DNA of 64,000 nt from positions 55,151-119,150 of the forward strand of contig JABMNI010000014.1 of assembly GCA_013204605.1 (NCBI GenBank), in the 5' to 3' direction. Source of the stretch: Ignavibacteria bacterium. Lineage in GTDB: Bacteria > Bacteroidota > Ignavibacteria > Kapaibacteriales > Kapaibacteriaceae. The translations under genes were made by a program, and so were the position numbers. Below the pieces are notes generated by a model, which was not told the origin of the DNA, did no database searches, and saw only the letters and a list, made by a program, of their open reading frames with translations. Positions 7,276 to 53,759 of this stretch are shown in pieces. The first letter of the stretch is position 1. Each line of letters opens with the position of its first letter.

Positions 7276-7385
7276 TTATCGTATTTTTACCGATAATTAG
7301 TTGGATACAGATTGAGAATGCGCTACAAAGCCCGCGGATAAGGACTTTGAAAGAATTCACAATTATCACCTAAAAGTTGATATTC

Positions 7386-8405: not shown

Positions 8406-8407
8406 TA

Positions 8408-10866: not shown

Positions 10867-10913
10867 CTTTGCACCGTAATAAGCTCGTTATTTTGCCACC
10901 TACAAGCACTTGG

Positions 10914-12650: not shown

Positions 12651-12695
12651 GATTTACGTCAATCCACGTTAACAACCAGTAAGTAGAAAGTTCGA

Positions 12696-14150: not shown

Positions 14151-14151
14151 C

Positions 14152-15633: not shown

Positions 15634-16349
15634 AGCGGATAGTTTGTATACCCACGTATAATGAAATCGAAAACATCGAGCGGATGATTAGTGCTGTGCA
15701 CAGCGTACTTCCAGAAGCTCACATACTAGTAATTGATGACGGCTCACCCGATGGTACTTCCGATTGTGTAAAGGGGCTTTCTGTTGGCGACGATCGCCTT
15801 CATTTGATAGTCCGAGCAGGTAAATTGGGGTTGGGAACTGCCTATTGCGCTGGCTTTGCGTACGCTTTGGAACGCGGGTACGAAGAGATCTATCAGATGG
15901 ATGCTGATTTCTCTCATGATCCTAACGACCTCAAGCGATTTGCTGAGGCAATTCTTGATGCCGACCTTGTAATTGGATCGAGATACGTTTCGGGAGTGAA
16001 CGTTATAAACTGGCCGATGAGCAGACTACTATTAAGTTGGTTTGCTAATCTGTACACCCGAGTAATAACCGGTATGCCCGTTGCCGATGCGACTGGCGGA
16101 TTTAAGTGTTTCCGAGCTCAGGTGCTACAGAAAATTGATCTTTCCTCTATTAAATCTAACGGTTACGCATTTCAAATTGAAATGAACTACAAGGCTTGGA
16201 GAAGTTTAGCGCGGGTAAAAGAGATTCCGATCATCTTCACTGATAGAGTTAGCGGAGTCTCAAAAATGAGCAAGAATATTGTTTATGAGGCGGCTTTTTT
16301 AGTATGGAAGCTTAAACTGATGACATTGTTTTCATTTGGAAAGAAGTGA
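15630..16349 (+). CDS. GT2 glycosyltransferase, polyprenol-phosphate mannose/glucose synthase-like (Dpm1/GtrB-like)
   Basis: VCIPTYNEIENI...VIDDGSPDGT...DADFSHDP; soluble GT2 fold. TTG start that overlaps the stop of the previous gene. Confidence 0.75.
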   Translation: MKRIVCIPTYNEIENIERMISAVHSVLPEAHILVIDDGSPDGTSDCVKGLSVGDDRLHLIVRAGKLGLGTAYCAGFAYALERGYEEIYQMDADFSHDPNDLKRFAEAILDADLVIGSRYVSGVNVINWPMSRLLLSWFANLYTRVITGMPVADATGGFKCFRAQVLQKIDLSSIKSNGYAFQIEMNYKAWRSLARVKEIPIIFTDRVSGVSKMSKNIVYEAAFLVWKLKLMTLFSFGKK

Positions 16350-16371
16350 GTTGACGAACTCAGATTTGAAT

Positions 16372-28949: not shown

Positions 28950-28958
28950 TCACGCTTC

Positions 28959-31900: not shown

Positions 31901-33989
31901 GAACGGCGAACTAAACTTTTACAATGAAGATCCAACCTGGGGAAATGGTTTTGCCGCATCAATTCAGGCAAAGTTCAAAGCATTGCAATTGCAAATTGAT
32001 GTAGCGGGAAGATTTGGTACAAAGGTCGACAACACCAATACCAGATTCCGTTATTGGTATGCCGATGCAAAAGCAATACTTCCACCTCCAGGCATTGTGT
32101 TTTTACCTGGATATGCATTCTACGGTTTTGGTGTAACCGCTTGGCAGCGGATAAGTGTAGACATGACAGGGGCTAAACCTAACGCTGCTGCCGTGGCAGG
32201 AGCTTCCACAACAACCACGGCCCCAGGAAGCGGTGCTACCATGTCACCAAACAGACAAATCGGTTTCGGCTTCAAGGTTCTCGCCGTACTGGGCACTACA
32301 CCCGATCCCGCAAAGTTGAACGCCGATGTTGCACTAACGGGTCAGTTCTCAAACTCTGGTGGCATGATTAACATCGGCTTTATTGGTGATTTATGGTTGC
32401 AGGCAAAACTTTTGGAACGTGCATCGGCACCGGTAAAGGGCACGCTAAATATCAACTATGACTTTACAACGAAGATCTTCGACCTGAACGCAACGATGAC
32501 AATAAACAAGCCACCTGTCACCGGAAGTGGAAACTTGAAAGTTCACTTGGAAGGCAAAACTGGAATTTGGTATGTCAAACTTGGCGAACCAACAAACCGG
32601 AATACTATTGCCGTGAATTTTCTTGGAACTGGAATTACAGCCAACTCCTACTTTATGTTTGGCAAAAACATAACGCCCCCTACAGGATTTACACAGCGCA
32701 CATACAACGGCTTAGCGTCTGTTGGGTGCTACGGTATGACGCCATCGTCATCCGGAACAACAGGTGCGATTTCGGGCAGCGGATTTGCCGGCGGCTTAGA
32801 CGTCGGTTTCGACTCTGGCGAACGCATGCGAGACATAATTGCAAGGTTAAAAGCTAAGTGGAGATTTGCAGGGGGCTTTGAATTCAATGCATCGCTTTTA
32901 CGATATCCAAATGGCTCGCTGTGCGGTGGCGATGGCATGAATTGGTGGTATGTGCAAGCCAATGTTGCGGCGTACGCTATTGCGAGTGCCAGCGTGTATA
33001 TAACACCTAAAAAAATTAGCGACGGCTGCATTGTATGTTGCACTAAGAACCATCCTAATGGTTGTACCTACAACATTGCAACCATAACATTCGGTGCGTG
33101 GGCCGAGGCAGGATTCCCGAACAACTCATGGCTTCAAGGACAAGCAACAGGGTCGTTCAATGTACTTGGCGGAGCGTTCAGCGGAAGTTTTAGCGCAGAG
33201 TTTAACGTAGGCACACGATGCACGCCGGCACCTCCGGCCAGCGCGAACGTAGCGGCACAAGACGTTGGAGCCGAACAGGCAACCAAGCTGATAACATCGG
33301 TCACGCCTGCACACAACTCCATGAACGTAGCGCTAGCAGAACCCATCATGGCAATTTATTCATTTGAGCCCAACGTACCATTTGATTTAACCGAGTTGCA
33401 GGGTGGAGCATCCGGCAATACCGTGAACCGGACTTTTCAAGTAAAGTATGCTGTCACAGTAGAGCAGTTTAACGAAACAGTTTGGGCGCCAACTGTAGTT
33501 TCAAGCGCCAAGGATGCGCTTGGTGCATTTTTATTCCGAAGGAAGTCGAATATTATTCTACCCATAAACGACGTGACGTATAGTGCTAAGACTACCACTA
33601 TGACTCCTAAAAATACCAATGCACCATTTTCAACTTCCAATAGTCCTACTCCGATAACTCCGCCCAAACCAACCGCTGTTCTTAACGCGCCGAAAAATAC
33701 TTCAAACCCATTCGAAAACACCCCGCCCCCTTCAGAAAGTGACTCATACTCGTTCAGCAATGCCGGACAACAAGCATTCATGAATGCCACTCTAAATTGG
33801 GAGCTGGCAAAGAAGTATAGAGTTACCGTGGTGGGCACACTTTGGGAGCTTTCTTCAAACAATCAGTGGGTGATTGCTAAATCGAAAAGTTCGAATCAAA
33901 ATATTACGCAGACGGTAGTCAATGTTTTTAGTACGCCAATGCCGTTGATTGCTATTAATAAAAATGTGCAGAAGAACAGTGTTAAGTAA
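28959..33989 (+). CDS. Giant secreted protein (1676 aa); no family recognised
   Basis: Signal peptide MTKNYAVTTLMLTAVLLTGVFEVYGQ. Contains an S/T/N-rich linker (~29800-30010), a Cys cluster (SLCGGDG...DGCIVCCTKNHPNGCTY, ~32915-33070) and a Pro/Thr-rich linker (~33590-33750). No T9SS CTD, no LPXTG, no RHS/YD or cadherin-like motifs seen. Confidence 0.55.
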   Translation: MRSKMTKNYAVTTLMLTAVLLTGVFEVYGQLRVSVNLTSRPDPYISNWSQRKEVVIVSVTNSSLKEIDAKFNCTVKKDGVLLANTKPENMQVLSIQPGSTQYYGEDLVPIAAMRVIGNTEQTLVKTGMLPAGEYEFCVNLIHPTSGIELTPPVCRNFTIQSYQAPVLLLPLDGDSLRKGQRPLFRWMAVSPKPSFVVRYRLQVFEVMTGQTPITAFRVNQPIIDVPDIQTTQLLWPPDYDLVSNQKSLVWTVRAIDDNGNPLGEPNGYATPFVLKCAQDVSKATGDVSTGNATKKSGADGNMNARSGESGSSTTRSTSTTGSDTTDANSANNAKQSSGSNTPSYQTPPSLPCGQCSYAVTITDTAASAGNAVVGDSISIGRFSMKITTLTNAPFAALSGKGEINIPWLLARVLVTFDSLKVNAAKQVVIGEARSEVDASAPQYPQQWAINQAVSWNWTKKTVAWVDDFVKQKGSIVKSVNNMNTPLKVPLGFNNISGYTVCISEFLFKKDDALMAMVATIPLPKLDDTLSLGLNQLPICPQGVGKTARLELLADLDVRGLTSAQPTFSITALAPTANRPGCYIMFGCDNNTDTLSVDFDIAFPRAWITPRPDADSTKQTIATLRGTAVNWKEWLVVGSLPASTFVGTNGMGLQVDTLAFDFSDRQNPPGIIFPANYTGITDTTFNGFYAKKVRMWMPDGWRTFADSASAPEFSANSLIINKNGITGTLLGVNIVQFPNANLNRLSASIDTVKVVMLNTNLTSAYMRGRLLLPITDSTPQNAIAYKALFNSTQKSFDFSLTPTTPIDMKLFAGAKLTLLPSSSLTMTISKARKKFALVLNGEIGFNAIELQVGQKKVAVDLSVDFENMYASYTDSVKHTFDYSIGDWSFASAQKKLAKFPVTIDKVKYAKLTPVGYELMRGKVSLDLILALDSNRIGGKGSFDVTVAVEKNNPTSSFKFRPRFIDFNVGKVDVHAKLAAVELNGELNFYNEDPTWGNGFAASIQAKFKALQLQIDVAGRFGTKVDNTNTRFRYWYADAKAILPPPGIVFLPGYAFYGFGVTAWQRISVDMTGAKPNAAAVAGASTTTTAPGSGATMSPNRQIGFGFKVLAVLGTTPDPAKLNADVALTGQFSNSGGMINIGFIGDLWLQAKLLERASAPVKGTLNINYDFTTKIFDLNATMTINKPPVTGSGNLKVHLEGKTGIWYVKLGEPTNRNTIAVNFLGTGITANSYFMFGKNITPPTGFTQRTYNGLASVGCYGMTPSSSGTTGAISGSGFAGGLDVGFDSGERMRDIIARLKAKWRFAGGFEFNASLLRYPNGSLCGGDGMNWWYVQANVAAYAIASASVYITPKKISDGCIVCCTKNHPNGCTYNIATITFGAWAEAGFPNNSWLQGQATGSFNVLGGAFSGSFSAEFNVGTRCTPAPPASANVAAQDVGAEQATKLITSVTPAHNSMNVALAEPIMAIYSFEPNVPFDLTELQGGASGNTVNRTFQVKYAVTVEQFNETVWAPTVVSSAKDALGAFLFRRKSNIILPINDVTYSAKTTTMTPKNTNAPFSTSNSPTPITPPKPTAVLNAPKNTSNPFENTPPPSESDSYSFSNAGQQAFMNATLNWELAKKYRVTVVGTLWELSSNNQWVIAKSKSSNQNITQTVVNVFSTPMPLIAINKNVQKNSVK

Positions 33990-34014
33990 CTATCGCAAAT
34001 CAGGGACAACATCC

Positions 34015-36165
34015 ATGCGCAAGCTTGTAGTATTCACGGTGCTCGCAATGTTCGTATTCGTTGCGGCTGCAAACCAAATTTCGGCGCAATCGAACGACAA
34101 TCTCAATGCGGCGTTGAACGTGCAAATGAAGGGAATTGCAAAACGATACGCCGACTCCGTAGTGCTACGATGGGCACCCGGTAACGCCTTCTTATGGCGT
34201 TTGTCGCGCACGCAGGGCTATAACATTGAACGAGCGGAAGTGATAAATGGCAACGTTGGCCCATACGTTGCTCTTACTGTAGCGCCCGTTACGCAATGGA
34301 CAACGCAGCAATGGACAACATTCCTCCAGACATATCAATATGCCGATAGCACAGATGAACAGTTGATAGCAGTAGCAAGCATTTTATCGGAGCAAGCCGA
34401 TTCGCCAACAGACACTCCGGTGAAAGATCTTGGAGATCTTCAGGCACTTCGCGAGAAAAAAAGTCAATCTGAAATGACCTTTGCTTACGCACTCATTATT
34501 GCAGAACGCAATCGAATTGCTGCCAATAGTTTAGCCATGAGGTTTGTAGACAAGAGTGCTACATTAGGTAAGGAATATAGATATCGGATTTCTATGTTGG
34601 GATCAACCACACCATACAACGTGACTGCTGCCTTGGTTGACGTATCACCGCGTGCAAACACTGCCGAACAAAATGATGCCGGACTCAGTGCGTTAGCATT
34701 AGATACAAAGGTTGTGTTAACGTGGGCAAACACAACCGGACATTCAACATTTGATGTGTATCGTTCAAACAACGGTTCACAGTTTACAAAACTCAATATA
34801 ACGCCGCTCCTCACCATACGTCATGGAACTGCCGATGCAGAATCGAACGGCTACATCGATTCGAATCTTGTGAACTACACAACGTACACGTATCGAGTTA
34901 CGGGAAATAATTCGTTTGCCGAAGTTGAAGAAATCGGAACTATTAATGCAATGCCGCATGATGTTACGCCACCACCAACGCCAAGCGGCGTGCGCACTGA
35001 ACACGTTGGCGTAAAAAGTGTGGCGATCACCTGGCATATGCCAGATGCACCGATGCCTGATTTACTCGGCTTCTACATTCAGCGTGGCAGATCAGAAGAC
35101 GGTACGTTCCAACTTGTAACTACTACGCCGCTGGCAAAAAATATTCGTTCATATCTCGATACCACCGCCGCCTTAGGCGACACACTCTACTATCAGGTTG
35201 TGGCCGTAGATACTGCAAAGAACGGCAGCTTGTCGTTTGCGGTGTACGTTGCATTTGCGGACAGTATAGCCCCTTCACCAGCAGTGCTGATACGTGGCGT
35301 TATGGATACTGCCGGTGTAGTGCGCATAACAGTGCAGCATCCAACTGATGCAGATGTAATGGGATATCGACTGCTAATCGCAAACGATTCCACGCATGAG
35401 TTTACCGTTAAGCGAGAACTCTTCGACGAAGAAACACAATTCAATAGGGAAGACACCATCTTGCTCGACACAGCCGAGTTGCGCACGCTTACAAAATTTG
35501 TTTACTACCAAGTAATTGCCCTCGACTATCACTTTAATGAGTCGGTGGTAAGCAATATGATTGCCGTTCCACGGCCGGATATCATTCCACCCGTTTCGCC
35601 TGTTGTTACAGACTACGTTGTAACAGACTCGAGCATCGTTCTCTTTTACAATCCAAGCACAAGTAGGGATGTAAGCCACCACGTTATCCAAAGAAGACCA
35701 TTCAATGCAACAAGTGTTCCTCCAACCACATGGGACTCTCTTGCACGCGGTGGAATAACCGACAGCATCATCGTCGACCAAACAGGAACACTGTCTGCCA
35801 CATATCAGTACGCTGTAATTGCCTTCGACAGTGCGGGAAATGTATCGCCCCTTTCAAACATCGTAACCCTAGTGCGCTACGACAATGGTATACGACCGCC
35901 CGTGACTACCGTGCGAGCCGCATACGACTCCACTACAAAGTCCGTCCGCCTCCAATGGGAGTATATCGATTTAGGTGAAGAGCACAGCTTCATGATTTAC
36001 AAACGCAATGGCGCGGCGCTCGAATCTTACGCCCTAGTAAAGGACCAACTCGCCCGGGAATACATTGATTTGAAGGGGGCTAAACGCAACGCTACATTCG
36101 CAATAAAGGTAATCTGCAGCCGAGGCGCAGAATCGAAAATGAGTGAGAGTGCAACGGCACGTTAA
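34015..36165 (+). CDS. Secreted protein with fibronectin type III-like repeats
   Basis: The ORF track starts at 33949, overlapping the giant gene. I prefer ATG 34015 (MRKLVVFTVLAMFVFVAAANQISAQ, signal peptide). FN3-like segments: TPPPTPSGVRTEHVGVKSVAITWHMP...YYQVVAVDTAKNGS and IIPPVSPVVTDYVVTDSSIVLFYNP...YQYAVIAFDSAGNVS. Confidence 0.55.
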   Translation: MRKLVVFTVLAMFVFVAAANQISAQSNDNLNAALNVQMKGIAKRYADSVVLRWAPGNAFLWRLSRTQGYNIERAEVINGNVGPYVALTVAPVTQWTTQQWTTFLQTYQYADSTDEQLIAVASILSEQADSPTDTPVKDLGDLQALREKKSQSEMTFAYALIIAERNRIAANSLAMRFVDKSATLGKEYRYRISMLGSTTPYNVTAALVDVSPRANTAEQNDAGLSALALDTKVVLTWANTTGHSTFDVYRSNNGSQFTKLNITPLLTIRHGTADAESNGYIDSNLVNYTTYTYRVTGNNSFAEVEEIGTINAMPHDVTPPPTPSGVRTEHVGVKSVAITWHMPDAPMPDLLGFYIQRGRSEDGTFQLVTTTPLAKNIRSYLDTTAALGDTLYYQVVAVDTAKNGSLSFAVYVAFADSIAPSPAVLIRGVMDTAGVVRITVQHPTDADVMGYRLLIANDSTHEFTVKRELFDEETQFNREDTILLDTAELRTLTKFVYYQVIALDYHFNESVVSNMIAVPRPDIIPPVSPVVTDYVVTDSSIVLFYNPSTSRDVSHHVIQRRPFNATSVPPTTWDSLARGGITDSIIVDQTGTLSATYQYAVIAFDSAGNVSPLSNIVTLVRYDNGIRPPVTTVRAAYDSTTKSVRLQWEYIDLGEEHSFMIYKRNGAALESYALVKDQLAREYIDLKGAKRNATFAIKVICSRGAESKMSESATAR

Positions 36166-38381: not shown

Positions 38382-40400
38382 TTATTTCGAGCGCGGAGTT
38401 TCAATTATTACTTGAACAGTTCGCGAAAGCTGACGTCCAATCGGGGCATCATTATTAAATATTTCTGTCGATTCTCCAACGCCTAGGGCAGTGTATTTAG
38501 CATCCTTCGCCTTTGCCATCAACGTATTCTTAACCGTTTCAGCGCGATCCATCGATAACTTTTTATTGTACTCATCCGATCCAATTCTGTCTGTGTATCC
38601 AATGATGCTGACCTTTGAATTAGACTTGATGGATGGTAAAACCATTTGCTCAAGGATGCGCGAGTTTTCTGGCGTTAAATCAGATTTATCGAAGTCGAAG
38701 AGTACCAACGAATATTTATCGATGGTTTTATCGGGAAGGTTTTCGGTTTTCTTGCGGACACTACTTATGTACTCAACAGGCAACGATCCGAAAGAAGTAG
38801 CTGAATCACCATCGCCAGATACAGCCGTGAATTCATAGTCGATTGGAACTTGCGATGCCGATAATTCATTCGGGCGTACAACCCAGCTAATAGCATCGGC
38901 TTTTCCATTTGCTTTTACTTCGCGAAGTGTGCGTCCGGCCTGAGAAATATTCAATGACCAACTTTCAATTGAATCTGCATTGTCGTACACAGGGTGAAAC
39001 TGCATAACATCTGGCGTTGCAATGCGTTGGTTATCTGCTGCAATAACTACCGGTGCAAGAACATCTGGAACGTTGCTTGAAAGCTCTATCCTTCTATTCT
39101 CAGCAATACCATCGGGTGTTGTGGAAGAGGAAGGCTTGGCGGGCGTAGCCGTTGTGCGTGTTACAATTCTATCCTCCGAAATTCCAAACCCATTAACCAA
39201 ATATTGTTTTGCCCACATAGCACGCTGTTCGCCCAAAGCTTTGTTTTTGCTTTCTTGTTTGCCATCGGTAGTACCGGTAATGGTCAACGTGGCATTTGGA
39301 TACTTGCGCATTCGGCTGCCAACAATATTCAACATGTTTTTGTTAACCACGATTGCATCTTGCGGTAAACTTTCAGCCAAGAACTCACCCTGCTCTTTTT
39401 GTGCAGCCGGTTCGGCCTGCAAAGATGCATCAGGAGATGCGCTACCCTCTGTACAAAAAACGTACGGAAGCAACGGAAACATCTCGTTGTACTGCAAATC
39501 CTCTACCGCCACGTTGCGAACCGCATACTGATTTCCATCCGTATTTCGTGCAGTAATTCTATCAATTCGAGTCCCAAATTTTGGTCGGTCTGCGGTAGGG
39601 GGCGGTGCAGCTGTAACAATGCCAAAACTTATATTAATTCCTACGCGCAATTGTCCAACCTTCCAAGGAGTGTTGTTAACATCGGATGAAACGTTTGAAA
39701 GCGGCAGACGGTACGAGATTTCCGGCTGTAGCCACCATTTGTCGCCCAGCTTAAATGTGTAGCCAGCGCCAAGCATAAGTGCCGTGCGAATGTTTGAGTT
39801 AATAATCTCTGTCGAGCCAGCGGTATTTTCTGTTGCTACACCTTGTTCGGCAACGCGAAGTTCAGTGGTCTGCGCAACAGACGATCCAAGTCCGAAACCA
39901 AATTCGAGTCCACCAAGCAAATACACCGGAACCGATCCAAACAAATCGTACACTTCAATTCCTGGCGAAACCTCAAGTAAGGTTGATGAGGCATTCCAAG
40001 CGTGGTATAAAACTGAGTCGACTCCCACGGGCTGACGCTGATTACTTGATGACGAAATAGTATTTATCCCCAACCTGCCCGTAAAATGAAACATCCGATT
40101 TATCGGAATGCCTACAAGTAGACCACCAACAAAAACTGTGTGTGTGTTTCCTTCAGCGTATCTTAACGTGTTGTTAGCATATCTAGTGAGAAGCGGTGCA
40201 GCCGGCGTAGTTTTTTGCCAGACCAAAACAGACGGACTTGAAAAGTTGAAACCTAGTGCCCCGAAAATGCCAATTCTGGCCGGGGGTACCAGGGTTTCTT
40301 CAACTCCTGTCATAGTAGTATCAGCCGAAAAGCCCCTTACCGAGAAAAATAGAAGTGACACCGTTACGATTGCCAGAAATTTACGAGTCATAGAATTCAT
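38382..40400 (-). CDS. OmpA-family outer-membrane protein with an N-terminal beta-barrel and two OmpA-like C-terminal domains
   Basis: 672 aa with a signal peptide. Two peptidoglycan-binding OmpA-like modules (...ITGTTDGKQESKNKALGEQRAMWAKQYL..ENRRIELSS and ...IIGYTDRIGSDEYNKKLSMDRAETVKN...). Paralogous to the 43592..45592 protein. Confidence 0.7.
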   Translation of the reverse strand: MNSMTRKFLAIVTVSLLFFSVRGFSADTTMTGVEETLVPPARIGIFGALGFNFSSPSVLVWQKTTPAAPLLTRYANNTLRYAEGNTHTVFVGGLLVGIPINRMFHFTGRLGINTISSSSNQRQPVGVDSVLYHAWNASSTLLEVSPGIEVYDLFGSVPVYLLGGLEFGFGLGSSVAQTTELRVAEQGVATENTAGSTEIINSNIRTALMLGAGYTFKLGDKWWLQPEISYRLPLSNVSSDVNNTPWKVGQLRVGINISFGIVTAAPPPTADRPKFGTRIDRITARNTDGNQYAVRNVAVEDLQYNEMFPLLPYVFCTEGSASPDASLQAEPAAQKEQGEFLAESLPQDAIVVNKNMLNIVGSRMRKYPNATLTITGTTDGKQESKNKALGEQRAMWAKQYLVNGFGISEDRIVTRTTATPAKPSSSTTPDGIAENRRIELSSNVPDVLAPVVIAADNQRIATPDVMQFHPVYDNADSIESWSLNISQAGRTLREVKANGKADAISWVVRPNELSASQVPIDYEFTAVSGDGDSATSFGSLPVEYISSVRKKTENLPDKTIDKYSLVLFDFDKSDLTPENSRILEQMVLPSIKSNSKVSIIGYTDRIGSDEYNKKLSMDRAETVKNTLMAKAKDAKYTALGVGESTEIFNNDAPIGRQLSRTVQVIIETPRSK

Positions 40401-43591: not shown

Positions 43592-45592
43592 ATGAAAATT
43601 CTCGGCGTTGTTGTCCTCCTCGCCGTGACGGTTGGTGTTCATTGTTTGAACGCTCAGATCCCCTCGATAGGTTTGAAAGGGGGCATGCACTATGTGTTCA
43701 ATACGTCAACCTTGCCTGTATTAGCCGGCAGTTCCGATTGTGGAACATTTTCAGACGGAGTTGCCAACGGATTTTTTGGTGGCCTTACAGGTGAATACAG
43801 TTTGTTTGGCGATGCGCTTGAGGTAACCGGCGCAATTGTGTATTCAAATCGGCCCGCGTCACTTATCGTTCGAAGCACTGATAATTTTGAAGTTTTAGAT
43901 CCGCGAACAAACAGTTTTGTTAGCCTTGAGCGCGAACATGTTTTTACAAGTAAGCTTGGATATGTTGCCGTAGAGGCTGGGTTACGATCGCGTCCGCTCG
44001 ACTTTCTACCTATATACGTACGAACTGTGTTCGACGCGGGAAATCCGATAGTCGATGCAACGTATACGCAAACAGAAGAAATTATTTCTCCAAGCGGTGT
44101 GTTATTTCCCGAGGGTCTGAAGCGTAGGACCATTGGATCGGGCGAGTATCCAGGCCTCGGCACAGCATACGGAGTAACAGGCGCAATTGGCGCCGTTATA
44201 GAAATTGCTAAAAATATTGAGTTGTGTCCGGAAGTATCGTTCCGCTACGGACTAAACAACCTTACCTCACAGGCCGAATGGAAACAGTCTTTCGCTTCAG
44301 CAGGAATTCAACTTAGATACCGGATGAACGATGACGAGGCACCGCCTCCGCCTCCGCCTCCGCCTCCGCCTCCGCCTCCTCCGCCTCCGCCTCCTCCTCC
44401 GCCACCGGTTGTAGCTGAAGTTGTGGTTCCGGTACCGCCGGTATTGATTGCATCAATATCCACAAAGCCCCTTGAAATTCAAGAAACAGTGGTCACGCAG
44501 ACATATCCGTTATTGCCGTATCTGTTTTTCGAAGCGGGGAATGGAGCCATTCCATCGAAATATGTATCTAGTGGCGATGTTGCTGAGTTCTCAGAAGCTA
44601 GCTTGCCAAAATCGACGTTAACGATTTACTACAGAATGTTGGACGTAATTGGAAGTCGGATGCAGCGCAATCAGAAAGCAGTGTTGAATGTAACCGGTGC
44701 TACCGACGGCCAGGAAAAAGGTTCTGCTCCAGAGAGAAAAATACTCGCAACGAACAGAGCGAACGCTGTAGTTACGTATTTAAAACAGCGATGGAATATT
44801 TCTGACAATCGATTTGTTACCAAGGTAATCGACAAACCATCGTTGGTTTCGAATGAAAAATATGCCGAGGGTAACGAAGAAAACCGCCGTGTTGAGTTAA
44901 GTTCATCCGACCCGTCAATTACCGGACCCGTCCTCCATACCAAGTTCCTGGAATGGGTGCCCGTTCAGCCGTCGCACGATTTCAGCATATCCGTCAACGA
45001 ACCCGCAGCCGCCACAAAATGGGATCTCAAAGTATCGCATGCCGATGTTATTGTTGGTGGTAAGGGGGCTTTGGGGAGCCCACCAGATAGAGTAACATTT
45101 AAGCTTGATCAGGCCACTACAGATAAATTGGGTCCGATAATTAAAGTGTCGGGCAATTTAGAAGCTTCTTTGGAAATCCAAAGGCAATCAAACGAACCGG
45201 TAGTTGCACAAACAACCTTTTCAATTAAAAAATCTGTAAGTAATTTCGAAGTTAGTAGACTAAGCTTGATAGTATTCGATTATGACCGAGCAGACATAAG
45301 TGAGTTGAATAAGGAAATGATGCGTAAGGTTGTTTCGAGTGCTGTGCGCGAAGGAAGTACTTCAACTATTCATGGATCGACAGACCGACTCGGTGAGAAC
45401 AGCCATAATATGGAGCTCTCTGCAAACCGAGCAAAAAGTGTTGAGAGTTTTGTGAAAGCGATGGTTCCACAGTTAAAGGTTGATGAGGTTCGTGGAATGG
45501 GAGCATCGGATTTACCGTATGACAACAATTTGCCCGAAGGCAGATTTTATTGCAGGACAGTTTCATTAATAATAACCACTCCGTTGAGGTAA
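43592..45592 (+). CDS. OmpA-family outer-membrane protein with a poly-proline linker and two OmpA-like domains (paralogue of 38382..40400)
   Basis: 666 aa with a signal peptide. A run of more than 20 consecutive Pro. OmpA-like modules: ...VTGATDGQEKGSAPERKILATNRANAVVTYL..ENRRVELSS and ...IHGSTDRLGENSHNMELSANRAKSVESFV.... Confidence 0.7.
   Translation: MKILGVVVLLAVTVGVHCLNAQIPSIGLKGGMHYVFNTSTLPVLAGSSDCGTFSDGVANGFFGGLTGEYSLFGDALEVTGAIVYSNRPASLIVRSTDNFEVLDPRTNSFVSLEREHVFTSKLGYVAVEAGLRSRPLDFLPIYVRTVFDAGNPIVDATYTQTEEIISPSGVLFPEGLKRRTIGSGEYPGLGTAYGVTGAIGAVIEIAKNIELCPEVSFRYGLNNLTSQAEWKQSFASAGIQLRYRMNDDEAPPPPPPPPPPPPPPPPPPPPPPVVAEVVVPVPPVLIASISTKPLEIQETVVTQTYPLLPYLFFEAGNGAIPSKYVSSGDVAEFSEASLPKSTLTIYYRMLDVIGSRMQRNQKAVLNVTGATDGQEKGSAPERKILATNRANAVVTYLKQRWNISDNRFVTKVIDKPSLVSNEKYAEGNEENRRVELSSSDPSITGPVLHTKFLEWVPVQPSHDFSISVNEPAAATKWDLKVSHADVIVGGKGALGSPPDRVTFKLDQATTDKLGPIIKVSGNLEASLEIQRQSNEPVVAQTTFSIKKSVSNFEVSRLSLIVFDYDRADISELNKEMMRKVVSSAVREGSTSTIHGSTDRLGENSHNMELSANRAKSVESFVKAMVPQLKVDEVRGMGASDLPYDNNLPEGRFYCRTVSLIITTPLR
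44342..44408 (+). repeat. Hexanucleotide simple-sequence repeat (CCGCCT/CCTCCG)n encoding poly-Pro
   Basis: ccgcctccgcctccgcctccgcctccgcctcctccgcctccgcctcctcctccgccaccg. It is in frame inside the OmpA-family gene. Confidence 0.85.
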
Positions 45593-45595
45593 AAA

Positions 45596-47155
45596 ATGCA
45601 ACGAAGAGACCTTTTTAAACGACTATCGCTCTTGAATGAGCGAACCACGTCGCCCCCTTCACTCCAATTGGTTGAAGCCGGAGTTGAAGAACATACCGAT
45701 CCACTCACCCTGTCCGACGTGCTACACCTGCTGCGAAGAATGGGTTTTGGTGCCACCATGCCGCAGGCGAAATTGCTAGTTGGAAAGCGAGCGGCCGAGG
45801 TGGTAGATGCGTTGTTGGGAGCTGATGAGGAACCGGATTTGCCGTCGCCAGGTGCGTGGACAGATACAGCCACAGAAAATCCGTTGGGGGCTGATTTGCA
45901 AACGCGCGGTCAGATTTATAACACGTGGGACCAGAACTGGAAGAAGCTGGGTAATTGGTGGTTACTGGAAATGGCTAACGATACCAAGGCAGTTGAAAAA
46001 TTGACTCTATTTTGGAGTGGGCATTGGACGTCGGAGTATTCGTTCGATGAGACATTTAGTGTCCCGCAAACGTTGTACCGTCAGTACAAAACCATTCGCA
46101 AGAATCGCTTGACAGGATTTCAGAAGATGGCGTTAGAGATGACGGTTGACAATGCGATGGTGAATTATTTAGGCGGTACCTATAACGAAGTGGGCAAGCC
46201 GAACGAGAACTATGCACGCGAGCTTATGGAGTTGTTTACCTTGGGAATCGGTTTTTATACCGAAGGTGATGTTAAAGAAGCTGCCAGGGTACTTACAGGT
46301 TGGAAGTCATCAAAGTATTCCGATGAGCCGGCACCAAATGGGATTTACGGTACGTGGTTCAACGCGGCGCGGCACGATATCGGGGCGAAACAGTTTATGG
46401 GTCAGACGATTTCCGCACGTACCAACGATAACAACACCGAATTCCAAGTAAAAAATGAAGAAATTGGCAGGCTCATCGATATTATTTTCACGGTAAGAGC
46501 CGACAATGTTTCAAGATTTATTAGCGAAAAAGTATACCGATATTTTGTATACAGCGCAAAAGGAGAGGCAGATCCGGTGATTATTGAAGGCCTGGCAAAA
46601 CCTTTCCGTGATGGAGGTTTTGAAATGAGAATTCTTTTCAAAAAATTATTTACAAGCAAGCATTTTTTCGATCCTGCATTGCGCGGTGCTCAAATAAAAA
46701 CTCCGGTTGAGTTTGTTGTTGGACTACTCCGACAATTAGGTGTCACTAATGCCGATCCGCAAAGTTGGACGGGTAAGATGGATCAATTTATGTTGGATCC
46801 ACCAAACGTTGCGGGGTGGCCTGGTTATCGTACGTGGATTAGCACTAATACCTATCCGCAGCGACGCCAGTTTGCACTTGAAGTAATTAAGGCAATGTCT
46901 GACGCGCGAGCAAACTCTTTCATCAAAGAATTCGATGATTACTCAGATGTAAAGAAATTTATCGCTAACGTTTGCAATTACTTGTTTCCGGTGGAAGTAA
47001 CTCAGGAGCGATTAGATTTCTACAAAAACTCGTTGCTTGGTGGAGCTCCTGATTATGACTGGCCCGTAATTTTAAACACACCTTCTAGTTCTGCAGCCAA
47101 GTTTAGAAATATGCTAAACACAATGGCTAAAGCACCGGATTTCCAACTCTGTTAA
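45596..47155 (+). CDS. DUF1800 family protein
   Basis: 519 aa. LHLLRRMGFGAT motif near the N-terminus, as in DUF1800. Immediately followed by a DUF1501 gene, which is the known conserved pairing. Confidence 0.6.
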   Translation: MQRRDLFKRLSLLNERTTSPPSLQLVEAGVEEHTDPLTLSDVLHLLRRMGFGATMPQAKLLVGKRAAEVVDALLGADEEPDLPSPGAWTDTATENPLGADLQTRGQIYNTWDQNWKKLGNWWLLEMANDTKAVEKLTLFWSGHWTSEYSFDETFSVPQTLYRQYKTIRKNRLTGFQKMALEMTVDNAMVNYLGGTYNEVGKPNENYARELMELFTLGIGFYTEGDVKEAARVLTGWKSSKYSDEPAPNGIYGTWFNAARHDIGAKQFMGQTISARTNDNNTEFQVKNEEIGRLIDIIFTVRADNVSRFISEKVYRYFVYSAKGEADPVIIEGLAKPFRDGGFEMRILFKKLFTSKHFFDPALRGAQIKTPVEFVVGLLRQLGVTNADPQSWTGKMDQFMLDPPNVAGWPGYRTWISTNTYPQRRQFALEVIKAMSDARANSFIKEFDDYSDVKKFIANVCNYLFPVEVTQERLDFYKNSLLGGAPDYDWPVILNTPSSSAAKFRNMLNTMAKAPDFQLC

Positions 47156-47195: not shown

Positions 47196-48755
47196 ATGAA
47201 ACGCAGAAACTTTATAAAATCCACGGCCGCGGCCGCAGTTGGTTCGCAGGTACTTGGCGGAGTGCCAGTTAAGGCTTTCTCTCCGTTCGAACTTTCTGAG
47301 CAGATTCAGGGCGAAGACGACAAGATACTAATCGTAATCCAGCTATTTGGTGGGAATGATGGCCTGAATATGATTGTACCTGTAGATGATCCTGAATACT
47401 ACAAGGCTAGGCCAACCATTGCCGTACCTAAGGATAAGGCCGTGAAGGTGCTGGGTAATGTGTATATGCATCCGGCACTCGATCCAGCGAATATTTATAA
47501 TTTAAAACGAATGTTCGAAGATGGCCGGCTGGCCGTGATACAAGGTATTGGTTATGAAAATCCCAACCTTTCTCACTTTAGAAGCACTGACATTTGGTTG
47601 AGTGGTTTTAACTCCATCGATCCAGACAAGCGTTTGATTGATGGGTGGCTTGGTAGATATTGGGCTGATCAAATTCAGGGCTTCCCGGAGACCTTGCCAG
47701 ATCATCCAACGGCGGTGCAACTTGGCGGCACGCTGTCAATGTTACTACAGAGCCCGCAGGGAGACATAGGCATCGCTCTAACCGATCCGCAAAAATTCTT
47801 TGAGCTGGGACAGGGGCTTTCACCTGATCTTGATCGAATGTCCGAGGATACTCGCTACGGCAAGGAATTCAATTTTGTCCGCTTGGTTGCCGAGCAATCA
47901 GACAAATATTCCACGGTGGTTAAATCTTCATATGATAATGGCAAGAACTCTGTTACGTACCCGAAAAATGGATTTATTCAGCAAATGCAATTGATTGCAA
48001 AGCTTATTTCTGGCGGACTAAAAACCAAGGTGTTCTTGGTTCGCATGGGAGGGTTCGACACTCATGTGCAGCAACAGAATGATGATCTTACTGGACTCCA
48101 CCCATACCTAATGAACACATTGAGTTCAGGTATCGGATTGTTTATGCAGGATGCCCTTGCACAGGGTTTCGCCGACCGAGTTGTTGGAATGACGGTTTCG
48201 GAATTTGGCCGAAGGCCAGCCGAGAATGGTAGCCGAGGTACCGATCACGGTGCGGCCTCCATGCAATTTGTTTGGGGTAATAAGGTGCGAAGCGGCGTGT
48301 ACGGAAATAATCCCGACTTCACGAATCTCGACAATGGAGACTTCAGGTGGCAGTACGACTACCGCAGGATTTATGCCGATGTAATGGAAACGTGGTTTGG
48401 CGGCACTCCCGATGACACCGAACGAATCTTAGAAGAACGCGTTTTGCCATTGGGAGTTTTGCAGCGCACTACCTCCGTTCAGGATGCGTACGATGGAAAA
48501 ACACGTATCGAAATCAAGGCATTTCCAAATCCATTCACCTCCACGGCCACGTTAGAGTGGAACCAGGAAGTACCGGCCTCGGTCAAGATTGAACTCTATT
48601 CAACCACGGGAAAGCTGGTCGAAACAGTGTACATTGGTAGCGTCTCACCAGGTAGGGTAACCATCCCCGTTACAGCATCGGCATCGGGCTCCTACATATG
48701 CAACGTGATTGTGAACGGTGTAAGTAATACCGTCCCAATTTCTGTTCTACACTAG
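47196..48755 (+). CDS. DUF1501 family protein (alkaline-phosphatase-like superfamily) with an N-terminal Tat signal and a C-terminal T9SS sorting domain
   Basis: Twin-arginine motif MKRRNFIKSTAAAAVGS. DUF1501 hallmark LFGGNDGLNMIVP. The last ~85 aa (IEIKAFPNPFTSTATLEWNQEVPASVKIELYSTTGKLVETVYIG...GSYICNVIVNGVSNTVPISVLH) match the T9SS type-A C-terminal domain pattern. Confidence 0.65.
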   Translation: MKRRNFIKSTAAAAVGSQVLGGVPVKAFSPFELSEQIQGEDDKILIVIQLFGGNDGLNMIVPVDDPEYYKARPTIAVPKDKAVKVLGNVYMHPALDPANIYNLKRMFEDGRLAVIQGIGYENPNLSHFRSTDIWLSGFNSIDPDKRLIDGWLGRYWADQIQGFPETLPDHPTAVQLGGTLSMLLQSPQGDIGIALTDPQKFFELGQGLSPDLDRMSEDTRYGKEFNFVRLVAEQSDKYSTVVKSSYDNGKNSVTYPKNGFIQQMQLIAKLISGGLKTKVFLVRMGGFDTHVQQQNDDLTGLHPYLMNTLSSGIGLFMQDALAQGFADRVVGMTVSEFGRRPAENGSRGTDHGAASMQFVWGNKVRSGVYGNNPDFTNLDNGDFRWQYDYRRIYADVMETWFGGTPDDTERILEERVLPLGVLQRTTSVQDAYDGKTRIEIKAFPNPFTSTATLEWNQEVPASVKIELYSTTGKLVETVYIGSVSPGRVTIPVTASASGSYICNVIVNGVSNTVPISVLH

Positions 48756-48785
48756 GTGTTTCGTACACTTGACGAATACGAGGGC

Positions 48786-48817
48786 ATCCCGTTGGGTGCC
48801 TTTTTTTATAGCACCTA
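48786..48817 (+). terminator. Rho-independent terminator after the DUF1501 gene
   Basis: GGCATCCCG-ttg-GGTGCC hairpin (one G-U pair) followed by TTTTTTT. Confidence 0.55.
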
Positions 48818-48833
48818 ACTTACCCCTACACTT

Positions 48834-50357
48834 TTGGCTAGCAGAAGAGAATTCATAAAAGCAATTATGGTTGGCACTGGGGCAGTGTACGCCGTTGGTA
48901 TAAGCGGTTGTAAGCGTCCCGCCGAGGTGACTTTGGTTAGCGCAGCAAAAAGGAATTTCGGAACTCCACTGTACAAGGTTGCACACGCGTTAATTAGAGA
49001 TGGTGGTGCGCTGCCTCGAGTTTCAAAAAAAGTAAACTGTGATTACGTTGTTGTTGGAACGGGAATCTCCGGACTCACAGCTGCACTCTCACTGCAAGCT
49101 GAAGGCAAACATGTTGTAGTAGTAGAAAGCGAAAATCGAGCCGGCGGTACCGCGGTCAGCGCAAACTTGGCAGGCAGCAAGGTCCCTCTTGGAAGCGTAT
49201 ACTTCGTTGATAAAACTCCGGAAATTGAAATGCTCCTTAGTGTGGGCAAGATAAAACCTACCGTGTGTCCGGATGATGCCTACGACTTTGGAACCGGCGA
49301 GCTTATCCGTGATTTGTGGTCAGACGAAACGTTAAACAACGCCATTGCGGACAGTTCCGACCGCGATGGCATGTACCGCTTTCGAGATTATGTTAAGGGG
49401 CTAGGTGATTCTCTGCCTTTGTATCCGCTACCCGAAACTTTGAATAGTGAACTGGCAAAATTTGATATTCAGGCCGAGTCGTGGGTAAAGAAATTTGATT
49501 CGCGAACCTTACTTACCATTCTGAACGCCTATTCAAGATCTTCGATGGGTGGATTGTTGCAGCGCACGAATGTGTATTGTCTGCTGAATTTTTACTCTTC
49601 AGAGTTCGGCGAAGGCACAACCGCTAACCGATACACTTTCCCAGGTGGCACCTCCGCTTTGGTTGATGCAGTTACGCCAAGTTTGCACGACATGAGGTAT
49701 GGTCAACTCGCAGTTCGCGTAGCAAATTCCGCTAGCGGTGCGTATGTTGACTGTGTTGGTGCCGATGGTACCTTAACGAGATACGAAGCAAAAAAAGTAA
49801 TTTTTGCAGGCGGAAAATTCCAAGTATCACGACTTATTGAAAATTTACCCACGGCCCAGAAGTTGGCATGCAGCAAGTTGGAATACGCACCTTATATGAC
49901 GATTCACATCGTTAGCGATCATCCACTCGTGCAGAATAATGTGTACGACACATGGAATCTAACCAGCGAGTTTGAAACAGATGTGGTGAATCCAAGAAGT
50001 GTATTTGGTTCAACACTCGACAAACATGTAGCCTCGTTGTTTATTCCCATGGACCAATTTATGCGCGTGCAACTACAAAGTGAAGAGCTCTTTGCTCGTC
50101 GTGCCGGTGAAATTGTAGACAGGTTTATTAATACTCGAACCCCAGATCAACAAGCCTCGGTCCGAGAAGTATATTGCTGGGGATGGGGTCATGGAATGAT
50201 CATTCCCACCCCTGGTTCGCATTCAGGCATTGCTCAAGATGCCTCACGTCAGTTCGAAAACATAGTGTTTGCCAACACCGATTGCGATGCATCCCCATCC
50301 ATCGAGAGCGCTGCCCAACGTGGCGGGCTAGCAGCCATACAGGCACTCAGTACGTAG
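48834..50357 (+). CDS. FAD-dependent oxidoreductase (amine-oxidase/PPO-like Rossmann) with a Tat signal, possibly a Tat lipoprotein
   Basis: TTG start gives MASRREFIKAIMVGTGAVYAVGISGC. This is a near-consensus Tat motif (SRRxFIK) followed by a lipobox-like ISGC. The FAD-binding motif is DYVVVGTGISGLTAALSL...VVESENRAGG. Confidence 0.65.
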   Translation: MASRREFIKAIMVGTGAVYAVGISGCKRPAEVTLVSAAKRNFGTPLYKVAHALIRDGGALPRVSKKVNCDYVVVGTGISGLTAALSLQAEGKHVVVVESENRAGGTAVSANLAGSKVPLGSVYFVDKTPEIEMLLSVGKIKPTVCPDDAYDFGTGELIRDLWSDETLNNAIADSSDRDGMYRFRDYVKGLGDSLPLYPLPETLNSELAKFDIQAESWVKKFDSRTLLTILNAYSRSSMGGLLQRTNVYCLLNFYSSEFGEGTTANRYTFPGGTSALVDAVTPSLHDMRYGQLAVRVANSASGAYVDCVGADGTLTRYEAKKVIFAGGKFQVSRLIENLPTAQKLACSKLEYAPYMTIHIVSDHPLVQNNVYDTWNLTSEFETDVVNPRSVFGSTLDKHVASLFIPMDQFMRVQLQSEELFARRAGEIVDRFINTRTPDQQASVREVYCWGWGHGMIIPTPGSHSGIAQDASRQFENIVFANTDCDASPSIESAAQRGGLAAIQALST

Positions 50358-51316: not shown

Positions 51317-51337
51317 GTAAAGTTCGTGCAAAAAATA

Positions 51338-51371
51338 AAAGAGACCGCTCAGTGAGCGGTCTCTTTTTTTT
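51338..51371. terminator. Bidirectional rho-independent terminator
   Basis: GAGACCGCT-cagt-GAGCGGTCTC hairpin. It is followed by T8 on the plus strand, and by TTTTATTTTTT on the minus strand downstream of tRNA-Leu. Confidence 0.75.
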
Positions 51372-51372
51372 G

Positions 51373-51456
51373 TGCGGAAGACGGGACTTGAACCCGTACG
51401 CCCTTGCGAGCGCCACCCCCTCAAGGTGGTGCGTCTGCCAATTTCGCCACTTCCGC
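51373..51456 (-). tRNA. tRNA-Leu (anticodon GAG), type II with a long variable arm
   Basis: rc = GCGGAAGTGGCGAAATTGGCAGACGCACCACCTTGAGGGGGTGGCGCTCGCAAGGGCGTACGGGTTCAAGTCCCGTCTTCCGCA. Acceptor stem GCGGAAG/CTTCCGC. Anticodon loop TTGAGGG. T-loop GGTTCAAGT. Confidence 0.8.
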
Positions 51457-51518
51457 GCAGGGGGAGCAAATATAAAGGAAATTGCCACAGCTTCTACTTT
51501 ACCCAAGCCGTTTCAATG

Positions 51519-53759
51519 TTACCTGCGCACCATCAACTTTGCAATTGTACTCTGACCCGATGTAGCACTTGTTGCATGAATCAAGTACACACCCGGTGGA
51601 ACTGTTCTACCTAACGTGTCGGTGCCGTCCCACGTTGTTTGCTTTCCCTTGGTCTGAAAAGCGGTTACCAAGAAACCGCCCGTGGTCATAATCCGAATAT
51701 CCGAATCAGCCGCTAGTCCATTAATTATCACTTCATTATCTAGTTGTGGGCTGAATGGTTGAGGGTGAATTTCAATATTGTAATCAGCTACCGGTTTGAT
51801 TGAAGATGACCTAGCCACAGTGCATCCGTAACTCGTTCCAAAGTAAGCCAGCCCTGTTTTATCATCAACGGCGATACACCGAATGTTATCATCAAGTAAT
51901 GGTGCATTTGACTTTGACAAACTCAACAAAACTTGCGTTCCATCTTCGTTTAAAACAAAAACGCCAGTCGAAGTGGCAACCCATTTATAGTTCAACGCAT
52001 CAACATATATGTCATTTACCACGGCCGATGAAAGCAACGAAATGCGACGCACGTATGGAACGGTGGTGTTACTTAATTGGGAGGGGGCTGAAATCACGGC
52101 TACACCTTTTGGAGTACCAATCCATAACGATCCCGATTTGTCTATTCGTAAAACGTTGATCACGTTATCTGGTAATTGCGTATTTGATGTGCGGATGTAA
52201 TTACAAACGTCATCTGAGGAAATGTCAACGTTGCGCTCATTAAATCCCACTATGCCAATTCCAGCAACACTGCCAATCCATTTATTGCCCGCCCCATCAA
52301 CAGCGATTGATCTGAACAATGTGCTGCCGGGGTCGACGCAATTTGGAAATGATTTAGAGGTTTCGTCTTGGTTAAGCTTAACCGCAAGTACCGACGCGGA
52401 TTGTTCGTTCACAATCCAGGTATTGCCTTGACGGTCTTGCGCTACGTCGGCAACCAGGAGATAATTCGGATCGGCTGCAATACCTTGCAGCACCGAATTC
52501 TGCGAGTTGAATAACTTAAACTGAATTTCGCCATCTACTTTTTTGGCTTGCACAGCCCCCTTCCCCCAGGTGCCAATCCAAATAGAACCGTCGGCCACGG
52601 CTGAAACACGGTAACATGCTCTGGTTTGAATTTGTGGTGTGTTGGAAGTGTTGAAATTTTGCCAATTGGTTCCATCAAAGTAGGAAACGCCTTCGCCAGC
52701 GCGAGGTGGTTCAACATCAGTTGCTACCCAAAGGCCACCATCGTTGTCGAGGGCGATGCGCGCAAACTGATTGGATACCGGCGAGTTGATTTTTACCGAA
52801 ATCAGACTGTCTAGATTAGAAATCTCTAGCCCTTTTCCAACTATGAATCCAATGAAGTGTACCTTTCCATCTTTAACTATGGTTGAATGGCCGAGGAGCT
52901 CGTTCGACCAGCTGATTACTATTGGCTGGGCAACCGAAACAATGCCACCAGATGAGGAAACGTATAACTGATTTTCGGAAATACTAATTCCGTTAACGGG
53001 CTGTGAAGTAGTTACTAGTGAAGAAAATATTGAACCCGTCCAGACTAAGGCTTGCGAAGCACATCCAACGTACAGTTGCGACTGTGCAGACGTAATGAAA
53101 CTAACCTTCGAAGTGGGAAGTCCGCTGACGGTGTCGTATACACTCCAAACCGTGGGAAGTCGGAGGGTGTTAACATTCAAAGGAGCCACGGCCATGCCGG
53201 AATCTGTTGCCACCCAAATACTGTCACGAAGAATTACTATACCATTGACGGCTGTTTTTTCTTGCAGGCGTCCAATTCGATCTATCGTCTCAACAAATAC
53301 TTGTTGTTTGGTATTGTAAAGTAGTACCCCTAAGTCTGAAGCGATAAATAATGTGTCGCCTTTTTTCGCGAACCCTCGAATTGTTCGGCGCTGATATTGT
53401 GAAGCCCGGGAAATGTCGGTGATGTTTGTCCATTTGCCGTTTGCGGTGGCTATATCTAAACTCCCGTTTTCGCCCCCTACATATATCAATGAATCTGCTG
53501 GGTCGAAAAATATTGCGGTGGCATCCAGCGACAACATCGCATCGATGTTGCGATATTCTGTAACTGGCGTATTCTGATCCGTGTATACAAACACGCCTCC
53601 CGAAGTGGCGGCCCAAATTCTACCTGTATGATCCAACGCAACTGCACGCACGGACCTGAGGCTGGAAAGTGTTAAATACGATGAGACCTGCACAGATTGA
53701 GCTGTAGCGGTTCCGGCAATCACACACAGCGCAACGCAGCACAAAAGGTGTTTCAGCAT
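51519..53759 (-). CDS. Secreted beta-propeller protein (two-component-regulator-propeller-like repeats) with a T9SS C-terminal sorting domain
   Basis: 746 aa with a signal peptide. Many repeats of the W(I/V)(A/G)T type (RIWAATSGG, LWVATDV, IWIGTWG, LWIGTPKG, KWVATSTG). The C-terminus ...IEIHPQPFSPQLDNEVIINGL...TTWDGTDTLGRTVPPGVYLIHATSA...KLMVRR matches the T9SS CTD. Confidence 0.7.
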   Translation of the reverse strand: MLKHLLCCVALCVIAGTATAQSVQVSSYLTLSSLRSVRAVALDHTGRIWAATSGGVFVYTDQNTPVTEYRNIDAMLSLDATAIFFDPADSLIYVGGENGSLDIATANGKWTNITDISRASQYQRRTIRGFAKKGDTLFIASDLGVLLYNTKQQVFVETIDRIGRLQEKTAVNGIVILRDSIWVATDSGMAVAPLNVNTLRLPTVWSVYDTVSGLPTSKVSFITSAQSQLYVGCASQALVWTGSIFSSLVTTSQPVNGISISENQLYVSSSGGIVSVAQPIVISWSNELLGHSTIVKDGKVHFIGFIVGKGLEISNLDSLISVKINSPVSNQFARIALDNDGGLWVATDVEPPRAGEGVSYFDGTNWQNFNTSNTPQIQTRACYRVSAVADGSIWIGTWGKGAVQAKKVDGEIQFKLFNSQNSVLQGIAADPNYLLVADVAQDRQGNTWIVNEQSASVLAVKLNQDETSKSFPNCVDPGSTLFRSIAVDGAGNKWIGSVAGIGIVGFNERNVDISSDDVCNYIRTSNTQLPDNVINVLRIDKSGSLWIGTPKGVAVISAPSQLSNTTVPYVRRISLLSSAVVNDIYVDALNYKWVATSTGVFVLNEDGTQVLLSLSKSNAPLLDDNIRCIAVDDKTGLAYFGTSYGCTVARSSSIKPVADYNIEIHPQPFSPQLDNEVIINGLAADSDIRIMTTGGFLVTAFQTKGKQTTWDGTDTLGRTVPPGVYLIHATSATSGQSTIAKLMVRR

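Follow-up and report, generated by a model that had tools for sequence, protein, structure and literature searches.

How does a protein leave the cell when its two ends carry the signals of two export machines whose pairing is undocumented? This question is raised by one gene in a stretch of 64,000 nucleotides (hereafter the window) of an Ignavibacteria bacterium (contig JABMNI010000014.1). The open reading frame (ORF) 47196..48755 on the + strand encodes a DUF1501 protein of 519 amino acids (aa), with the N-terminus MKRRNFIKS and the C-terminal stretch KAFPNPFTSTATLEWNQ...GSYICNVIVNGV. An earlier note on this DNA had proposed that a twin-arginine translocation (Tat) start and a type IX secretion system (T9SS) C-terminal sorting domain (CTD) are borne by this single ORF, which was found exactly as quoted. 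The start codon at position 47196 is the earliest possible after the in-frame upstream stop, and the alignments of homologues also begin with M-K-R-R. The Pfam scan detected PF07394 (DUF1501) with 69.9 bits (gathering threshold, GA, 27), the matched part comprising only residues 260-376, and a database sequence under the name 'MAG: DUF1501 domain-containing protein [Ignavibacteria bacterium]' (MAG, metagenome-assembled genome) is 100% identical to the window protein. The gene was divided into a predicted Tat signal peptide (aa 1-27, 47196..47276), a mature catalytic domain (aa ~44-420) followed by a linker (aa ~421-440), delimited by PF07394, the structural model and Foldseek (47277..48515), and a T9SS type-A CTD (aa 441-519) with the stop codon (48516..48755), all on the + strand. 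To the extent that sequence and predicted structure can tell, the Tat-type signal and the T9SS CTD are both supported as real, and we consider it probable that the enzyme would be exported by Tat and then secreted by the T9SS under the guidance of its CTD. The product would most likely be a secreted or surface-displayed metallo-esterase-like enzyme.

The C-terminal assignment is based on two profile hidden Markov models (HMMs), a family profile search and the structural model. PF18962 (Por_Secre_tail) scores 27.3 on the full protein (GA 27; residues 443-508) and 32.1 on the last 84 residues alone, and TIGR04183 (NCBIfam) scores 25.1 for a cut-off of 23; both of these T9SS thresholds, named beforehand as the test of the domain, are passed narrowly. 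The HMM-matched region covers residues 443-512 of 519, i.e. the extreme C-terminus, and 28/31 homologous tails match PF18962 (best E 2e-10). The type-A hallmarks are present (PNP... and G.Y.C), the residues Pro444, Pro446, Gly472, Gly486, Gly498 and Tyr500 are invariant or nearly so in a 50-sequence alignment, and the key positions are kept across tails that share 21-63% identity. The profile of the family tails finds solved T9SS CTDs, namely the C-terminus of a GH167 enzyme (9whd_A, 2e-4), 8glk_D, 8glj_D and the mirolase CTD (8qb1_A); 8glk_D and 8glj_D are chains of 75 aa, and 8glj_D is entered as 'Por secretion system C-terminal sorting domain-containing protein'. In the AlphaFold2 model (predicted TM-score 0.82), residues 441-517 form a seven-strand beta-sandwich with pLDDT (predicted local distance difference test) values >90, which Foldseek superposes on the mirolase CTD 8qb1_A (E 1e-3, TM 0.58 on target).

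The same tail profile also gives weak matches to generic Ig-like folds (FlgD and filamin). These matches would fit an explanation by Tat export only, where the protein would be periplasmic or envelope-attached and would use an Ig-like C-terminal domain for binding or oligomerisation, with no working T9SS signal. The full-length CTD scores lie near the cut-offs, most DUF1501 proteins of other phyla are presumed to be periplasmic (PMC3542564) and the known T9SS cargo are reportedly all devoid of a Tat signal (PMC10515386). On the other hand, the domain is located at the extreme C-terminus with type-A hallmarks, it reaches 32.1 bits when taken alone, nearly all of the related tails match PF18962, its resemblance to solved T9SS CTDs is found in sequence as well as in fold, and the sampled named CTD-bearing members all come from T9SS-bearing lineages. 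We therefore consider export by Tat only to be unlikely.

The N-terminus of the window copy is composed of an n-region MKRRNFIK, a weakly hydrophobic h-region STAAAAVGSQVLGGV and a c-region P-V-K-A, followed by FSP. The motif K-R-R-N-F-I-K fits the Tat consensus [ST]-R-R-x-F-L-K. In an alignment of 50 homologues (47-75% identity to the window protein), Arg3 and Arg4 are invariant and Phe6 is conserved in >90% of the sequences, while the h-region drifts; the consensus RRxF[LI]K is kept in the family, and RR followed by any residue and two hydrophobic residues is found in 77/77 orthologues with a complete N-terminus from species-level genomes. The hydrophobicity of the h-region was expressed as the maximum Kyte-Doolittle (KD) value in a window of 10 aa. 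It amounts to 1.47 in the window copy and to 1.68+-0.27 in the family, versus 2.99+-0.32 and 2.77+-0.37 for the signals of the general secretory (Sec) pathway carried by PorZ and by OmpA-like proteins of the same loci, respectively. This gap of ~1.2 units is the difference expected for Tat versus Sec signals. Position -2 relative to the A|F site is occupied by a basic residue in 43/77 orthologues (V-K-A|F in the window copy). At E<=0.1, the Tat models PF10518 and TIGR01409 match the N-termini of 41/50 (best E 4e-7) and 38/50 (best E 1e-6) family members, respectively. Within the window, only three ORFs have an RR-hydrophobic start, and these are three adjacent genes encoding a DUF1800 protein, the DUF1501 protein and an amine oxidase.

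We infer that the signal is cleaved after V-K-A, before FSP (Phe28). Residues 1-40 are disordered in the AlphaFold2 model. Most orthologues have a small residue (Ala, occasionally Gly) at -1, after which [FY]-x-P or x-S-P is conserved. Tat signals of low hydrophobicity are in some cases not removed, and the cleavage site of the DUF1501 protein is a predicted one; an uncleaved Tat signal might in that case anchor the protein in the inner membrane, with an irrelevant or vestigial CTD. The small residue at -1 with the conserved motif behind it argues against such an anchor, as does the CTD, since a vestigial domain would not keep its key positions at 21-63% tail identity, and the anchor appears extremely improbable. 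Four relatives with DUF1501 and CTD (P0150, P0158, P0171 and P0225) display a His/Cys-rich extension of ~30 aa ahead of the RR, with the consensus ...LEHG.AH..DH..WSRR.FL, which may serve as an n-region with a metal-binding or regulatory role.

Several points weigh against Tat export followed by T9SS secretion. The CTD clears both of its cut-offs by small margins in the full-length scan. The window copy is just under the curated cut-offs of the Tat models, with 16.2 (full protein) and 20.6 (isolated N-terminus) for PF10518 (GA 22.7) and 15.1 for TIGR01409 (cut-off 16.7), so that the Tat call rests on the invariance of RR, the KD values of the h-region, the charge of the c-region and the HMM matches of the family. 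In ~7 full-length CTD-bearing relatives (P0139, P0165, P0173, P0205, P0250 and others), R-R is replaced by R-K or R-D (e.g. MKRKDFIK), which indicates that Tat dependence may not be universal in the family; these sequences could represent weakened Tat signals or lineages switched to Sec. The genes tatA and tatC were not found by Pfam scans of the target gene and the 40 other ORFs of the window, 64 kb being a small sample, nor by phmmer in the window and 80 related loci (0.99 Mb) with approximate E. coli TatA/TatC probes. With no tat genes in the sampled DNA, the presence of Tat in this genome is deduced from the lineage, tatA and tatC being tabulated in 11/11 surveyed genomes of Chlorobia/Ignavibacteria (PMC3827258). 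Finally, the cargo predictor T9GPred demands 'no Tat signal', a rule drawn from 102 experimentally known cargo, all reportedly without Tat (PMC10515386).

The scores below the Tat cut-offs and the R-K or R-D relatives would also be compatible with the standard route, Sec then T9SS, in which an ordinary signal peptide happens to have two arginines, basic n-regions being possible in Sec signals. This route is very unlikely in our view. The two arginines are present in all 77 orthologues, together with a kept RRxF[LI]K, while the rest of the signal drifts; the h-regions are ~1.2 KD units below those of bona fide Sec signals of the same loci; a basic c-region residue is frequent and most family N-termini match the Tat HMMs. 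Moreover, twin-arginine motifs were previously reported on DUF1501 proteins of other phyla (PMC5122149, PMC3542564).

The earlier note had presented the pairing of RR and CTD as unusual. It does lie outside the accepted picture of the literature, and is not a single-protein oddity: the pairing is conserved in MAGs of Ignavibacteria, Kapaibacteria, Chlorobiota, Rhodothermia and Bacteroidota. At 90% identity, more than 110 clusters have members of ~520-550 aa that align with the query over its full length. When 1.84 billion representatives of 50%-identity clusters were searched exhaustively, 11,823 matches emerged, the best 150 of which were inspected with a clade-specific CTD HMM; RR and a terminal CTD occur together in 105 of these best 150 representatives, and RR and a CTD are likewise combined in at least 80 species-level genomes. 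The named members include MAGs of Bacteroidota, Rhodothermia and Ignavibacteriota, and the CTD-bearing ones sampled are all from T9SS-bearing lineages. In some relatives the CTD is preceded by further domains (RICIN, for example), and one member of 817 aa is annotated as RICIN domain-containing. A scan with one genome per species detected 562 relatives, and the best 80 of these 562 constitute the sample of loci used throughout (L001-L080). All 80 are MAGs, under the labels Kapaibacterium, Ignavibacteria, Chlorobiota or Bacteroidota apart from a few evident mislabels. Nine loci (L001, L002, L004, L008, L010, L019, L030, L038 and L048) are labelled Hyphomicrobiales, Bradyrhizobiaceae, Patescibacteria or Chloroflexota despite a locus of the Ignavibacteria/Kapaibacteria type, PorZ being present in some of them (L001, L002, L008, L019 and L030), and these labels probably arose from taxonomic mislabelling or faulty binning. 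Among the other matches of the CTD HMM in the same loci, RR is found in 0/17 and those with an intact start have hydrophobic Sec signals, which indicates that the pairing of RR and CTD is locally specific to the DUF1501 family.

A T9SS component is encoded in the window. The gene at 51519..53759 (- strand), 2.8 kb downstream of the DUF1501 gene and on the opposite strand, was identified as PorZ by NF052228 (322.8 bits for a cut-off of 260) and PF21544, and the presence of this equivalog indicates that the organism has a T9SS; the remaining components (SprA, PorV, PorU and GldKLMN) are located outside the window. PorZ lies at <=6 kb from DUF1501 in 27/80 loci, all of them from closer relatives (L001-L037). 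This proximity is most simply explained by a gene order shared among closer relatives, and its functional use is limited to the presence of the T9SS.

In the literature, the secretion systems are tabulated with 'Sec/Tat' for the type II system (T2SS) and 'Sec' for the T9SS (PMC8047123), and T9SS cargo are described as Sec-dependent (PMC9251779, PMC5837995). Together with the rule of T9GPred (PMC10515386), these sources bear out the statement of the earlier note that T9SS cargo are normally Sec substrates. In the validation of T9GPred, two secreted type-A CTD proteins without Sec signals are mentioned (PMC10515386). No description of a Tat-targeted T9SS cargo was found in the open-access literature, where absence is no proof. 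The T9SS is known to carry folded proteins (PMC9251779), so there is no mechanistic conflict in a passage from Tat to T9SS, and the sequence Tat then T2SS is an accepted precedent (PMC8047123). The T9SS has been reported only from the Fibrobacterota-Chlorobiota-Bacteroidota (FCB) group (PMC8047123).

Three known systems can be compared with the DUF1501 protein. It resembles the type-A cargo of the T9SS by its beta-sandwich of ~80 aa at the extreme C-terminus matching TIGR04183/PF18962, by a short linker between its enzyme domain and the CTD and by PorZ in the same genome, and differs from them by an N-terminus of the twin-arginine type, whereas the known cargo and the prediction rules are of the Sec type. 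PlcN takes the route Tat then T2SS. With PlcH and PlcN of Pseudomonas aeruginosa, substrates of this kind, the DUF1501 protein would share folding in the cytoplasm, passage through Tat and exit from the periplasm in a folded state. PlcN (9gy2) is also one of the structures that lie nearest to the DUF1501 core. The T2SS reads a conformational signal, whereas the DUF1501 protein would use the T9SS with a cleavable C-terminal domain, and the lineages differ as well (FCB group versus Proteobacteria). The pairs DUF1501 (PF07394)/DUF1800 (PF08811) of Planctomycetota, Verrucomicrobiota and Proteobacteria have in common with the window the same family, the RR motif and an adjacent DUF1800 (PMC5122149); no sorting tail is described there, whereas the subfamily of the window adds the T9SS CTD.

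The structural comparison of the DUF1501 core (residues 44-420) with Foldseek gave the glycerophosphoethanolamine (GPE) phosphodiesterase 8yk5, choline and aryl sulfatases, the phospholipase C PlcN (9gy2) and LtaS, with E values from 6e-6 to 1e-3 and low TM-scores. In the model, the core is an alpha/beta domain of the alkaline-phosphatase superfamily, and the low TM-scores indicate that it is a distant member. The 50-sequence alignment reveals the invariant motifs GGND (55), LSHFRSTD (125-132), FD.H (287-290), SEFGRRP (335-341) and G.DHG (348-352), of which GGND, LSHFRSTD, FD.H and G.DHG would fit the site of a metal-dependent esterase or transferase. No DUF1501 relative with a solved structure was detected by a sequence search of the PDB with the family profile.

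The DUF1501 gene is preceded on the same strand by a DUF1800 gene (45596..47155; PF08811, 294.5 bits), which adjoins DUF1501 in 73/80 loci, and by the gene of an OmpA-family envelope protein (43592..45592, + strand; identified by Pfam/NCBIfam scans) with a Sec signal (h-region KD 3.41) and a run of 22 prolines, an OmpA-like gene being located upstream in 49/80 loci. The gaps are of 3 nucleotides between the OmpA-like stop and the DUF1800 start and of 40 nucleotides between the end of DUF1800 and the start of DUF1501. Downstream of the DUF1501 stop, at 48780..48811 (+ strand), is a terminator-like hairpin proposed from its position (a 10-bp stem with 5 GC pairs, then TTTTTATA, which supplies the T-run), the terminator count of the region being not above that of shuffled sequences. 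The short gaps and this hairpin make a three-gene unit OmpA-like/DUF1800/DUF1501 likely. The DUF1800 partner has an N-terminal RR motif and is devoid of both an h-region and a CTD: M-x-R-R-x-[LF]-[FL] is kept in 69/73 loci (45596-45640 in the window), the sequence after the motif has a maximum KD of 0.85+-0.31 with scattered charged residues, and no Tat HMM matched the DUF1800 protein at E<=0.1. An RR motif without a hydrophobic h-region does not amount to a canonical Tat signal, nor to a Sec signal.

From these data, the route of Tat export followed by T9SS secretion can be outlined. The DUF1501 protein would fold in the cytoplasm, where it would probably acquire metal and/or its DUF1800 partner. 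The motif K-R-R-N-F-I-K, the weakly hydrophobic h-region and the basic residue of the c-region would direct it to export by TatAC, and signal peptidase I would cut after V-K-A. In the periplasm, the T9SS would recognise the already folded C-terminal beta-sandwich, a step for which the characterised systems use PorV and the SprA translocon, and the protein would cross the outer membrane through the T9SS, as both the sequence and the model suggest. By analogy with type-A CTDs, the PorU/PorZ attachment complex would then remove the CTD and the enzyme would be released or anchored at the surface. Concerning the origin of this arrangement, an ancestrally Tat-dependent periplasmic DUF1501 enzyme may have gained the CTD in the radiation of Bacteroidota/Ignavibacteriota while retaining its Tat signal. 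A further proposal, which we hold to be distinctly unlikely, is that DUF1800 crosses both membranes in a folded state as a passenger of DUF1501: the two proteins would assemble in the cytoplasm, DUF1800 would pass through Tat as a hitchhiker on the complete signal of DUF1501 and would leave through the wide translocon of the T9SS on the CTD of DUF1501. If true, the retention of Tat in place of Sec by the family would be accounted for, and the pair would be a case of hitchhiker secretion across the whole envelope.

What is new here, and supported by the sequences, is the putative entry of a T9SS cargo family through Tat instead of Sec, which is widespread, conserved and plausible yet undocumented. 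If this route is true, the T9SS would become, beside the T2SS, an outer-membrane system open to proteins that fold in the cytoplasm and arrive by Tat, and would be indifferent to the way its cargo enters the periplasm. A rule of cargo predictors would have to be corrected, since the rejection of Tat-positive proteins by T9GPred would miss the whole DUF1501-CTD family, and engineers would have a wider design space for making Bacteroidota secrete proteins that contain cofactors or are already folded. In these lineages the DUF1501 enzyme is probably extracellular or surface-exposed, a location that restricts the range of likely substrates to phospho- or sulfo-esters outside the cell. This offers a concrete way into the DUF1501/DUF1800 pair, which is large and uncharacterised.

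The third gene with an RR start lies behind the hairpin, at 48834..50357 (+ strand), and encodes a flavin amine-oxidase-like protein (PF01593 and FAD/NAD-binding families) with an RR motif and a lipobox. Its start (48834-48911) reads MASRREFIK...ISGC; RR and L-x-[GAS]-C are both present in 20/20 loci, with an h-region KD of 1.76+-0.33, and the protein is predicted to be a Tat-exported lipoprotein flavoenzyme. This conserved signal in a neighbouring gene also counts in favour of the Tat reading of the DUF1501 N-terminus. In the OmpA-family protein, the 22 consecutive prolines sit between the N-terminal region and two OmpA-like domains. A paralogue without the proline run is encoded 3 kb away, at 38382-40400 (- strand), with 25% identity (E 2e-42). 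The OmpA-like protein was also considered as PorE, a candidate that was rejected with 18.8 bits for a cut-off of 600, only the shared OmpA domain being matched.

In distant loci, a protein of ~1,670 aa is encoded immediately downstream of DUF1501 (L046 7665-12680, L047 7611-12614, L052 7597-12603, L055 7680-12701, L070 7588-12645, L078 7688-12709 and others). It has a Sec signal, a conserved mature start 'FPA[SA]CD' and a T9SS CTD. The window contains three large consecutive ORFs on the + strand (27129-28949, 28959-33989 and 33949-36165) of 606, 1,676 and 738 aa, whose hydrophobic N-termini resemble signal peptides on visual inspection and for which Pfam gave no match at E<=0.001; a kinship of these ORFs (27129-36165) with the CTD-bearing proteins of ~1,670 aa was tested, and they are unrelated.

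A tRNA-Leu(GAG) gene is located at 51372-51456 (- strand), and the ORF 51372-51614 is regarded as spurious because it overlaps this tRNA on the opposite strand. Between a DUF4382-like gene and the tRNA there is a perfect 14-bp hairpin (51337-51367) with T-runs on both strands. Finally, a polysaccharide biosynthesis/export cluster at 7377-18330 (+ strand) encodes a dehydratase/epimerase, a UDP-sugar dehydrogenase, a UDP-GlcNAc 2-epimerase, a Wza-like exporter, a flippase, sugar transferases and glycosyltransferases.

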